From Methanobacteriota archaeon (GTDB lineage: Archaea; Methanobacteriota; Methanobacteria; Methanobacteriales; Methanobacteriaceae), in contig CAWBCJ010000029.1 in assembly GCA_963787255.1 (NCBI GenBank), positions 1,022,936 to 1,086,935 on the forward strand: a DNA stretch of 64,000 bases, written 5' to 3'. Positions 53,973-56,358 of the stretch are shown here, piece by piece. Both the position numbers and the translations under genes were made by a program. The stretch's first letter is position 1. Every line of letters starts with the position of its first letter. The notes beneath the pieces were generated by a model, which did not search any database, was not told the DNA's origin, and was given only the letters and a program-made list of their open reading frames with translations.

Positions 53973-54653
53973 TTAAATCTTTAAAATGCCTTTATGTAAT
54001 GCAGTACCAACTAAAAATTTATTTAATCCTGCATTTTCAAGTTGAATTATGTCTTTTTCTGTTATGCCCCCTCCAATAATCAAGGATTCTCCAACTTGGT
54101 CAAATTTTCTTATTAACTCTTTATTAACTCCACTTTCTGATCCTACCTTTGAAATATCTAGAAGTATAACTTCTAAAGGGTTTAATTCATTTATTTTTTC
54201 AATTAATTTATCGGACTTTATTTTTAGGTACCTACTGTATATTTTTCCATTTTTAATATCAATGGATATTATTATTTTGTCCTTTGGAAATCTGTTGAAA
54301 ATATGGGTTAGGTCTTCAATGTTTTTAAGGGTTTCAGTTGCAACTATAACTTTATCAGCTGCTTCAAGCGCATTTCCAACATCTTCTATATTGCTGGCAC
54401 CGCAGTCTAGCATTACAGATATATGTTGTTCATTAATATCTTTGACTATTTGAAAATTAAATCCTTTACCTTCTATGGCGTCTAAATCTGCAATGTAAAT
54501 TCTAGATGCTCCCGCATCAATTAATGCATTTGTAATTTTAAGAGGTGAAGATGAATTGTGGAATATGGTCTTCAAGGGTATGTATGTTTCCCTTTCACCT
54601 GATTTTCCGGATACTGCAGTTCCATTTTTTAAGTCTAAAACTGGTATTATCAT
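53973..54653 (-). CDS. HisA/HisF-related TIM-barrel protein (methanogen C1-cofactor-associated type)
   Basis: IIPVLDLKNG.AV.GKSGERETY.P, YIADLDAI, ATETL, LDISKVG, GGGI, LVGTALH. Confidence 0.85.
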   Translation of the reverse strand: MIIPVLDLKNGTAVSGKSGERETYIPLKTIFHNSSSPLKITNALIDAGASRIYIADLDAIEGKGFNFQIVKDINEQHISVMLDCGASNIEDVGNALEAADKVIVATETLKNIEDLTHIFNRFPKDKIIISIDIKNGKIYSRYLKIKSDKLIEKINELNPLEVILLDISKVGSESGVNKELIRKFDQVGESLIIGGGITEKDIIQLENAGLNKFLVGTALHKGILKI

Positions 54654-54715: not shown

Positions 54716-54833
54716 AAAAAAAAAGTTTATTTAGATGGATTAGGGCACGAATACATTGGAGCGAATTGGATTGTATGTGCCCTAATCATCTGGGGATTTA
54801 TCTCCCGGATTTGCAAAGGAGGGGTTGGAAAAC
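54716..54833 (-). ncRNA. Candidate structured small RNA
   Basis: GC-rich island in an AT-rich spacer: TATA-like ATATATA ~25 nt upstream, CCCCTCCTTT leader, GGGA-N6-TCCC hairpin, long AGATGATTAGGGCAC/GTGCCCTAATCCATCT stem, T9 tract. Confidence 0.55.
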
Positions 54834-54977
54834 TTTATTATTAATACTTTTATTTAGATATATATTACAAATTATAATATGGATTAGCTACTATTTAATA
54901 ATTTCTATTAAACTAGTATTATTACTCTTATTGAAAAAATCAGGAAATATAAATGCCCCAAAAAAAAGTTAAAATAT

Positions 54978-55232
54978 TTATAAATTCTCTTCAATTTCTT
55001 TAATTGCATAATCTGCAGCATCATCTGCAATTTGAGGATCTGCAGAAGATAAATCATCGAATATGATATTAACACTTACATCTACATCTAATTTATCGCT
55101 GTAGATAAGTTCCACGCTTATATCAATATCAATAATCTCTTTTTTTGAAACCCTAGATAAAACATAATTTTCAGCAGATGAAACTGCAATTTCTGAAATC
55201 TCATCCAGTTTAGCATCAGAAAGTTTATTCAA
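54978..55232 (-). CDS. DUF3194 family protein
   Basis: Acidic 84 aa; AENYVLSRVSKKEIIDIDI; conserved position after pfdB. Confidence 0.8.
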   Translation of the reverse strand: MNKLSDAKLDEISEIAVSSAENYVLSRVSKKEIIDIDISVELIYSDKLDVDVSVNIIFDDLSSADPQIADDAADYAIKEIEENL

Positions 55233-55630: not shown

Positions 55631-55888
55631 TTAATATTGAATTTTTTGAACCTCATAAGACAGTATTATCCATCGAAGATACGAATTAAGTGATGCTCGA
55701 AGAGAAGGAGTATCCGCAGCATCAATTGTTAAGTATATACTGTTCCCATCTAAACTGGCAGTTACAGAAGACCGTTCAGACGGTGCAGTTTTAAGTTCAG
55801 GTTCTATCGTTTTTAAAACCACTTCCGCATCTTCCAAACTTTCAAATTTTATTTTAAACTCAGCCGTTATATGTTCAGGAATATTCAT
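55631..55888 (-). CDS. pcc1: KEOPS complex subunit Pcc1
   Basis: IEPE....SERS..IDAADTPSLRASLNSYLRW. Confidence 0.92.
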   Translation of the reverse strand: MNIPEHITAEFKIKFESLEDAEVVLKTIEPELKTAPSERSSVTASLDGNSIYLTIDAADTPSLRASLNSYLRWIILSYEVQKIQY

Positions 55889-56358
55889 TCAAATCTTCTA
55901 ACATAAATTTTAGGATTCACCATTGAACCAGCACTACCATAAAACTCAAAAATGGCTTTAATATCTCCTTCACCTTTTTTGACCCATATTATGTTCTCAT
56001 TTGAACTTCCCTGATCCTCATTTATTTCAAGGATATCCAAAAGCTTTTGTTTGAGTTCATCAATCTCGCATCTTAATACAGTCTTATCTGGATTTATCCT
56101 GCCTTTTAAATTTAAAATTGCCTCTGTAATGTAGAGAGTTAGCAGAATTTCACCCTTTTGATTATAGAATTCAATTCTGCTAGGGTTTCCCTTTACCTGG
56201 GAAACAACTGCAATTATTTTAAAGCCAGATGCTTTAATTAAAACATCGCGAAAACTCATTTTACCCCTATTAGCGTATGTAGCGTTTAACACGCGACTCA
56301 AGCTCTGGCAAAATGTTCTTGTTTTAGATGATGGTTTCCGTGACGTTGTTATAAACAT
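55885..56358 (-). CDS. Brix-domain ribosome biogenesis protein (Imp4-like)
   Basis: ITTSRKPSSKTRTF..NRGKMS..KGNP. Confidence 0.9.
   Translation of the reverse strand: MFITTSRKPSSKTRTFCQSLSRVLNATYANRGKMSFRDVLIKASGFKIIAVVSQVKGNPSRIEFYNQKGEILLTLYITEAILNLKGRINPDKTVLRCEIDELKQKLLDILEINEDQGSSNENIIWVKKGEGDIKAIFEFYGSAGSMVNPKIYVRRFE

Follow-up and report, generated by a model that had tools for sequence, protein, structure and literature searches.

The 64,000-nucleotide window analysed here, a stretch of contig CAWBCJ010000029.1 from a Methanobacteriaceae genome, carries in the spacer between a DUF3194 gene and a hisA-like gene an element that, on our reading, encodes a small structured RNA as a gene of its own and ends at a run of nine T residues (T9). 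Judged from its sequence, the element is a real, conserved RNA and a local, somewhat diverged member of an undescribed methanogen RNA family. In the family module, a 5′ stretch rich in C and U (CCUCC) is followed by a hairpin that varies and then by a conserved one with a large anti-frhA apical loop. This conserved loop, UUUCGCUCAAAUGUAUC, is antisense to the ribosome-binding site, the UUG start codon and the first codons of frhA; its complementarity to the frhA start region exceeds chance and co-varies across species, the independent events being few. On balance, if only narrowly persuaded, we favour the view that the window element is a trans-acting RNA masking the frhA start. Once transcribed, it would pair through its loop with the frhA translation initiation region in the cell and keep the small ribosomal subunit off the start, which would lower synthesis of the F420-reducing [NiFe] hydrogenase (Frh) and possibly destabilise the frhA mRNA as well. 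Two of the steps by which CO2 is reduced to methane draw on reduced F420 from Frh, so the RNA would probably tune a core step of methane metabolism. The interest of the element lies in this target, a central methanogenesis enzyme with unexplained regulation.

Read on the minus strand from about 54833 to 54716, the element begins with the CU-rich 5′ stretch GUUUUCCAACCCCUCCUUUGCAAAUCC (54833-54807), continues with a small hairpin, P1 (GGGA-GAUAAA-UCCC, 54793..54806), and a long hairpin, P2 (54733..54791), and ends at T9 (54716..54724), a likely terminator, as oligo-T is an established terminator of archaeal transcription. In the predicted fold, AGAUGAUUAGGGCAC and GUGCCCUAAUCCAUCU form the 15-bp outer stem of P2 with one bulged C, and the hairpin also holds an inner AUACA/UGUAU helix. 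The anti-Shine-Dalgarno (anti-SD) motif CCCCUCCUU, set within the CU-rich GUUUUCCAACCCCUCCUUU (54815..54833), is unpaired in predicted folds. All of these parts had been described in an initial annotation of the sequence, together with the GC-rich island in an AT-rich spacer, and all are present: the core (54725-54833) has 43.1% GC against 9.7% and 16.0% in the spacer on either side and 32.8% in the whole window. The predicted fold has an energy of -28.9 kcal/mol, compared with -14.9 +/- 2.8 kcal/mol for 200 dinucleotide shuffles (z -5.0), none of which was as stable. With a start near 54833-54835 the predicted transcript would be about 118 nt long, with one near 54868 about 150 nt.

No conserved open reading frame (ORF) was found across the element. 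The sole longer frame, on the plus strand at 54766-54972 (68 amino acids), is of low complexity, and in the nearest relative it is crossed by gaps of 5, 2, 3, 1 and 6 nt, which break any frame across the element. The plus strand was also considered as coding, in a KGGVGK-like frame, but relatives show a stop codon or a frame break and the idea was rejected. The Rfam 15 covariance models, which cover the signal recognition particle RNA, RNase P, C/D and H/ACA classes, gave no match in the whole window at their gathering thresholds; relaxing the limit to E 10 between 54600 and 55000 brought up nothing but a junk SAM-II match, which lies in the AT-rich flank and scores 14 bits where 44 are required. 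Six loci with typical family members likewise gave no Rfam 15 match at E up to 0.1, and ARAGORN reported no tRNA at the element. The initial view that the element is not a recognisable tRNA, C/D or H/ACA RNA and holds no credible ORF has stood up. By BLAST, covariance model and motif search, the element is single-copy in its own genome.

The hisA-like gene was found in all 23 genomes examined from the genus, and 18 of them hold the element in the spacer that separates it from the DUF3194 gene; one of these, G182, is counted as syntenic with the DUF3194 gene not seen within the 1,430 nt examined. The other five genomes (G179, G072, G181, G185 and G096) have a spacer of 2-158 nt and no element in it. 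Common to the 18 copies are YUUU[G/A/U]CC[A/G]A..CCCCUCCU[U/C], the GGG(A)/(U)CCC hairpin and the long hairpin. The CCCCUCCU[U/C] motif is invariant, 1-nt insertions lying immediately 5′ of it in three lineages, and P1 is present in all genus copies, with one group enlarging it to GGGAUCUAA/UUAGAUCCC. The long stem varies in sequence and keeps its pairing, as in G040 (GUAUCAGGACAU/GUGUCCUGAUAC) and G107 (GUAUGGAGUAUCU/AGAUACUCCCUAC), and in G177 both of its strands are shortened together. Pairing that is kept while the stem sequence changes points to a structured RNA, not to a coding or merely GC-rich remnant. The comparison of DUF3194-hisA spacers proposed in the initial annotation has in this way, through synteny and compensatory stem changes, backed its view of a structured RNA gene with a promoter-RNA-terminator layout. 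Simpler searches recovered little of this pattern. BLASTN of the element against 121 family genomes gave one true relative (G085, 82% identity), the 28 other matches being AT or T-run noise; a first motif pattern, ACCCCTCCTNTGCAAATCC, found four genus copies only; and a model made from four close copies (R1) was too narrow, its automatic alignment containing junk rows, and was not used. A search of genome contigs with the hisA-like protein gave a single locus, in a metagenome-assembled genome, which was left aside. The element does not appear tied to the hisA-like gene, given the T9 run, the five genomes that lack it, the copies of G072 located elsewhere and the 300-600 nt, with repeated promoter-like units, that separate the RNA from the gene in one group.

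A covariance model built from 14 sequences (R2, threshold E <= 0.1) revealed the wider family. It matched 76 of 151 sampled Methanobacteriaceae genomes, with up to 6 matches per genome, and also found other copies in genus genomes without a syntenic one. Forty listed matches outside the syntenic spacer were inspected and classed by eye. The hairpin UAGGGCAUCUAAAU..UUUCGCUCAAAUGUAUC..GAUGCCCUA or a close variant occurs in 29 of them, preceded by a 5′ CUU[U/A]GCCAUUG..UCCUCC stretch and a variable hairpin (often GGGAUC../..GAUCCC), and two (G071, G077) show a more diverged hairpin form. The other nine (in G052, G005, G050, G022, G009, G041, G007, G054 and G013) are no such RNAs but the frhA start read on its opposite strand; in G005, for example, the match at C1:93040-93149(-) lies opposite frhA at C1:93071-93418(+). 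When 47 members were aligned to R2, the eight core pairs of P2 were 96% paired, compared with 40-45% in slid controls, and six of the eight change on both sides (19 cells), which none of 500 shuffles reached. The G-U pairs in P2 fit the minus strand only.

A strict pattern, GGGCA-N6-36-GCTCAAATGT, which misses diverged copies such as the window's own, turned up in 68 of the 314 family genomes, whereas its reversed control gave 5 matches; single genomes had up to 4 matches (4 in one genome). By genus, it was found in g1 (16/22 genomes), g13 (16/26), g27 (9/19), g25 (11/32), g18 (3/5), g24 (3/3), g26 (2/4), g23 (2/6), g9 (1/1), g11 (1/1) and g15 (1/1), but not in g3 (0/24), g14 (0/26), g17 (0/8), g22 (0/6) or g4 (0/7); the matches in g5 (3/103) are apparently due to chance. 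The RNA family, partly multi-copy, spans at least 11 of the 27 genera of Methanobacteriaceae. Outside the conserved motifs its copies in relatives differ greatly, and no terminal repeats or target duplications are visible. Many other stand-alone copies carry T5-T8 runs after P2; none lies close by in G040, G115 and G176. In G072, where no more than 2 nt separate the DUF3194 gene from the hisA-like one, three copies occur on the same strand within 2.1 kb (C29:10338-12467; L142, L145, L148) around a gene for a small protein: two lie upstream of the gene, one of them close to it, and the third just downstream. At L169 (G104) and L190 (G053), another start motif (CUUAGCCAUUGAUCCC / CUGGCCAUUGGUUCCC) directly follows the RNA, which suggests tandem copies of the module.

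The gene facing the loop was identified as frhA by TIGR03295 (E 2e-185). In the genome of the window it lies about 800 kb away on the same contig, and its mRNA begins ..AAAAACAAGAGGUGAUACAUUUGAGCGAAAAGAUUGU.. with a UUG start. The frhA starts were compared in 37 RNA-bearing genomes plus this one, and in three genomes from genera without an R2 match (G002 of genus g3; G004 and G066 of g5). The start AGAGGUGAUACAUUUGAGCGAAA, with the stretch GAGGUGAUACAUUUGAGCGAA, is identical in the 38 RNA-bearing genomes, bar an A-to-G change in two, and 14 frhA variants were distinguished over a 34-nt segment, that of the window's genome included. The loop reaches from the last Shine-Dalgarno (SD) bases over the spacer and UUG to the first 3-6 codons. 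The contiguous Watson-Crick match between an RNA and the frhA of its own genome is at least 13 nt in 30 of 38 RNAs and at least 16 nt in 20 (median 16, maximum 21), and the duplex energies are typically -25 to -37 kcal/mol. In the three g3 and g5 genomes the frhA start reads differently, and R2 detected no RNA in 13 sampled genomes of g3 nor in 13 of g5.

Changes in frhA are accompanied by changes in the loop. G104 and G053, whose frhA reads ..GAUACGUUUG.. (A-to-G), have RNA loops with ..CAAACGUA.. (U-to-C), and a strict-pattern search did not find the usual AAAUGU form in either genome; the G104 loop makes a 12-nt match to its own frhA compared with at most 7 nt to other variants. Similarly, the genomes with an ACU AAA variant of frhA, G040, G115 and G018, carry syntenic loops of the UUUAGU type (UUUAGUUUCGC, GGUUUCGC and CUUAGGUUUUGC, respectively), which pair better with their own frhA than with other variants (-30.7 vs -25.4 kcal/mol in G040, -28.2 vs -21.2 in G115 and -33.0 vs -27.8 in G018). 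A second copy in G018 has two mismatches to frhA.

The loop of the window copy, AUACAAUCCAAUUCGCUCCAAUGUAUUC, has one substitution in the core motif. Its anti-frhA segments lie in the apical part of P2 (54749..54776): ACAAUC (54774-54769), UUCGCUC (54765-54759) and AAUGUAUU (54757-54750). RNAduplex pairs them with the frhA start of the same genome in three helices (6+7+8 = 21 bp, -23.7 kcal/mol) that run from the SD end over UUG to codon 6, and none of 1000 shuffled loops reached this duplex. The ACAAUC arm matches the GAUUGU codons peculiar to this frhA variant (-26.3 kcal/mol vs -22.5 for other variants). The predicted match is weaker than in most of the family but still specific. A ranking over 1,538 SD-preceded putative start regions of the genome (mean -11.2, sd 3.4) placed frhA in a tie for 3rd-4th, near the top without heading it; the other three regions in the top four belong to short frames (85-159 amino acids) that start with TTG. 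A wider RNAduplex scan of 94,092 segments outside the frhA contig gave many strong spurious duplexes from GC-rich contigs. Contigs C9, C10 and C26 of this genome are conspicuously GC-rich and may belong to its 4.6% contamination.

About 50 distinct elements were surveyed for ORFs starting within 250 nt downstream. Several kinds were seen, encoding the hisA-like protein (syntenic subtype), a protein of about 73 amino acids, HcgE and aspartate dehydrogenase. HcgE (PDB 3WV7, E 5e-65) follows at five loci in g13 and g26, and aspartate dehydrogenase (nadX) at two; in addition, a weak model match lies 244 nt upstream of a homologue of MJ1251 (PDB 3WVA), which we take to be HcgF. The conserved small protein, of about 70-90 amino acids, follows leader-type copies in at least four genera (L168, L142, L173, L178, L186, L188, L162, L175, L189, L192); it has the motif ..W.TFPY..NL..V...L..L.W...Y.L.YDENLIF.. 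and no relative in Pfam, NCBIfam or PDB. HcgE and HcgF act in the biosynthesis of the cofactor for Hmd, the nickel-free [Fe]-hydrogenase. Several RNA-bearing relatives have hcgE. The genome of the window (a 95%-complete assembly) yielded neither hmd (PF03201) nor, by tblastn, hcgE, hcgF or the small-protein gene, and a link to Hmd was accordingly discarded for this genome.

The regulation of the two hydrogenases offers a framework for these contexts. In Methanothermobacter under nickel limitation, frh expression goes down and hmd and mtd go up, according to the parts of PMC3087415 that deal with them, and the corresponding parts of PMC12350162 report FrhAGB protein nearly gone at low nickel with Hmd and HcgG increased. 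NikR homologues are the only candidate regulators named for the nickel response in those parts of the two papers, and the words 'sRNA', 'riboswitch' and 'antisense' are absent from both texts. The hcgE and hcgF contexts, combined with this published reciprocal control of frh and hmd by nickel, suggest that the family belongs to the nickel switch. As a tentative extension, itself open to considerable doubt, the family may be the post-transcriptional arm of a hydrogenase switch in hydrogenotrophic methanogens, since stand-alone and leader copies both show the anti-frhA loop. If so, switching on the nickel-free route, or whatever signal drives a shared conserved promoter (with the GTAATAC/GTATTAC repeat described below), would directly silence Frh translation, and the window copy would be what a lineage lacking Hmd has retained, supplemented by a free anti-SD seed. 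With its antisense match of up to 21 nt to the frhA start and its occasional place in the leader of an Hmd-cofactor gene, the RNA offers a concrete, cheaply testable candidate regulator for the nickel-dependent Frh/Hmd switch.

Several observations weigh against frhA masking. About three independent events, all among related genomes, underlie the co-variation of loop and frhA, and the 47-row alignment behind the P2 statistics was fitted to the model, hence biased towards structure. Some syntenic loops match frhA poorly: that of G176 has a 9-nt run, those of G085 and G183 have 7-nt runs, and the G085 loop reaches only -12 to -18 kcal/mol with its own frhA start. The syntenic loops of G107 and G057 are AU-rich and lack the motif, which another copy in G057 carries. 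As loops decay in several syntenic species while CCCCUCCU stays invariant, the 5′ motif may outweigh the loop in this subfamily. In the window copy, besides the ranking of frhA below the top, the complementarity is interrupted, its longest perfect run being 7 nt, and the AAUGUAU of the anti-frhA part lies in the predicted inner AUACA/UGUAU helix. A near-identical frhA start, GACACAUUUGAGCGAAAA, is found in the genera of the nine antisense matches (class B: g6, g8, g10, g14 and g22), in which R2 detected no RNA; frhA is thus conserved for reasons of its own (SD, start codon, N-terminus), and the RNA follows it. Moreover, many members stand directly before the small-protein gene, hcgE or nadX, so that the module may act in cis, and pairing with frhA may be a partial function or work in the reverse direction.

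The 5′ stretch raises the question of a different seed. In the initial annotation the element was a translation-repressing trans-acting small RNA (sRNA) with an exposed anti-SD motif; a trans-acting repressor is plausible, and the motif is real and free in the predicted fold, but no specific target emerged for it and the likely seed, the loop against frhA, had been missed. The corresponding alternative, rather unlikely in our estimate, is a general anti-SD sRNA in which CCCCUCCUU represses several GGAGG-type mRNAs and the hairpins serve only stability and termination. In its favour, no part of the 18 syntenic copies is better conserved than CCCCUCCU[U/C], the CCUCC stretch recurs in all family subtypes, many start regions of the genome reach -23 to -28 kcal/mol with the 5′ stretch, and masking of ribosome-binding sites has an archaeal precedent in sRNA41 (as described in part of PMC5867862). 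Yet no target stands out among the 1,538 start regions, and a large share of all mRNAs would be open to a short anti-SD, which leaves its specificity unexplained; in several species a GAGG or AAGG further downstream offers the CCUC a local pairing partner, and both the cross-genus conservation of the loop and its tracking of frhA would remain without explanation. The two seeds are compatible with each other. Most likely the loop is decisive against frhA and the anti-SD stretch a second or ancestral feature. In leader-type members, helix P0 joins the homologous CUUUGCCAUU to GUAAUGGCAAAG, which stands where the transcript is predicted to begin, and one such leader (240 nt, -59.6 kcal/mol, z -5.4) has the SD of the downstream ORF inside the extended base of the conserved hairpin. 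The P0 partner strand is missing in the window copy, which leaves its CU-rich stretch free; the exposed CCCCUCCUU could serve as a further seed for SD sequences, or be left over from a cis arm that sequesters the SD in leader-type relatives.

The frhA-masking RNA has also to be set against explanations that place its function in cis or deny it one. A leader, attenuator or riboswitch of the HisA/HisF-family gene, choosing between termination at T9 and read-through, seems improbable to us. The element does stand upstream of the hisA-like gene on the same strand in 18 of 23 genus genomes, relatives occupy 5′ leaders of other genes with the SD beside or inside the extended hairpin, and the hisA-like gene of the window has no visible SD. 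A constant 5′-untranslated position is nevertheless not found for the window subfamily, although other subfamilies do occupy leaders: the same gene pair occurs without the element in five genomes, promoter-like units intervene in the group with a distance of up to about 600 nt, and the G072 copies sit at another locus. Nor is a multi-helix junction or a conserved internal loop of the kind typical of ligand pockets evident, conservation lying in the 5′ tail and apical loop, to which leader-type relatives add the closing helix P0; the complementarity to frhA would be left unexplained. A slowly drifting, non-functional paralogue in decay, which we consider slightly less probable again, would account for the core-motif substitution, the interrupted frhA match, the weaker loops of the closest relatives, the lost P0 strand and the genome lacking hmd, hcgE, hcgF and the small-protein gene found near other copies; it is at odds with the 5′ motif, both hairpins and the promoter box being kept in 18 species, with stems compensated while the spacer diverged freely, and with the copy being the only one in its genome and hence no redundant spare. 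Very improbable, finally, is a dispersed repeat, such as a miniature inverted-repeat transposable element (MITE) or a repetitive extragenic palindromic (REP) sequence, or a mere terminator hairpin of the upstream operon. Relatives do have up to 4 strict-pattern or 6 R2 matches per genome, and a hairpin is followed by a T-run; set against this are the single copy in the window's genome, the strong divergence of relatives' copies without visible terminal repeats or target duplications, and the stably syntenic position. A terminator is disfavoured by the T-run that the DUF3194 gene has of its own 200 nt earlier and by the conserved promoter box in between. The choice initially offered between a single orphan sRNA and a MITE proved too narrow, the element being neither: related copies exist elsewhere in relatives, some directly before genes.

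Masking of frhA by the RNA would be of a mechanism type already known from Methanosarcina sRNAs. sRNA41 of Methanosarcina mazei, for which masking of the ribosome-binding site is documented (PMC5867862), and sRNA162 (PMC3510493) are, in the parts of these papers that describe them, likewise intergenic methanogen sRNAs extending from a promoter to oligo-T, and they share with the window RNA a proposed masking of start regions and a CU-rich single-stranded stretch complementary to the SD. They belong to another methanogen order, and no sequence or structure relation to them was found by Rfam or our own models. The seed proposed here differs as well, being a large hairpin loop that matches one highly conserved target, frhA, over up to 21 nt, and the module also occurs in mRNA leaders. 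RNAIII and the Rsa RNAs of Staphylococcus aureus and LhrC of Listeria resemble the family in their sibling copies per genome (in some species), loop seeds and start-region targets, but they are bacterial, partly Hfq-linked and have short C-rich seeds, whereas the loop here is gene-specific over 13-21 nt; there is no homology. Listeria SreA is a leader acting in trans, and the present module too is both leader (of the small-protein gene, hcgE and nadX) and stand-alone RNA, which would let a leader fragment act on a distant mRNA. In contrast to SreA, no ligand-binding architecture is evident here, and the trans action is what we infer. HgcC, HgcE, HgcF and HgcG are likewise GC-rich islands in AT-rich intergenic DNA, and no Rfam 15 match links the element to them. 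Full-text literature searches returned no paper on such an RNA, and the word stems 'Methanobacteri' and 'Methanothermobacter' are absent from a 2018 review of archaeal regulatory RNAs (PMC5867862). As far as these searches show, this would be the first conserved sRNA family described for Methanobacteriales.

Complements of the 5′ motif outside start regions were considered as well. The only extended ones are coding stretches for Walker-A motifs (KGGVGKT): a MinD-like gene of the window's genome can form 20 bp with one G-U (by eye) and a CooC-like gene 15/17. Complements of 54815-54833 (minus strand) of this kind lie on C29 near 915798, 914989 and 47127, and the 17-mer recurs in other genera simply as the antisense of CooC/ArsA/MinD/Mrp P-loops. 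The mRNAs of Walker-A ATPases (CooC/MinD/ArsA-type) were rejected as a conserved target, as relatives show no matching changes, 1-nt insertions fall mid-motif in three lineages and the complementarity is absent from other subtypes; it may be a coincidence. No consistent complementarity between the 5′ motif and the loop, as in a pseudoknot, was seen by eye.

The two lengths given above reflect alternative promoters. The box ATAGAAATTATTAAATA (54892..54908, minus strand) is read as a putative promoter on the basis of the known archaeal consensus of B recognition element (BRE) and TATA box. A box of the form A(A)ATAGAAA(G/T)TATTA(T/A)ATA precedes the CUUUGCC motif by about 95-105 nt in most of 47 family members, and the BRE/TATA-like box is seen too in the syntenic spacers of the genus (both by eye). 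In the window it may place the start near 54868, adding about 35 AU-rich nt at the 5′ end. The initial annotation had taken ATATATA (54865-54858) as the TATA box, which is possible, but the conserved upstream box points elsewhere. ATATATA is contained in an imperfect inverted repeat, GUAAUA ... GUAUUA (54868-54863 and 54847-54842; 54842..54868, minus strand). GTAATAC/GTATTAC-type motifs occur at the equivalent relative place in most family members (by eye), and in a leader-type member they are predicted to form a hairpin inside helix P0; the repeat in the window would be either the 5′ hairpin of a longer transcript or a DNA operator. The half-site spacing of the GTAATAC/GTATTAC repeat, about 14-16 bp, recalls NikR-type operators.

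The genes on either side of the element lie on the same strand. Upstream, the DUF3194 gene (54978..55232; PF11419, E 6e-21) is the final gene of an exosome/prefoldin cluster (Rrp42-L37ae-Pcc1-prefoldin), in agreement with the placement of the element downstream of the exosome cluster in the initial annotation. Downstream, at 53973..54653, follows the HisA/HisF-family gene (hisAF_rel; His_biosynth E 3e-40; TIGR00734 E 2e-57, above cut-off). In the large-genome group of the genus (L083-L086, L091, L092, L094), the spacer between the RNA and the hisA-like gene is 500-900 nt long and contains 2-4 units in tandem; every unit measures about 100 nt, carries a promoter-like box, TTTATATAGAAATA, and ends ..CTAATTCTAAATAA..AATGGATTG; the last unit adjoins the start of the hisA-like gene, and the array looks like a repeatedly duplicated promoter/leader. 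Within the cluster upstream of the DUF3194 gene, a 157-amino-acid ORF (55885-56358, minus strand) without a Pfam family at E <= 0.001 lies between the L37ae and Pcc1 genes.

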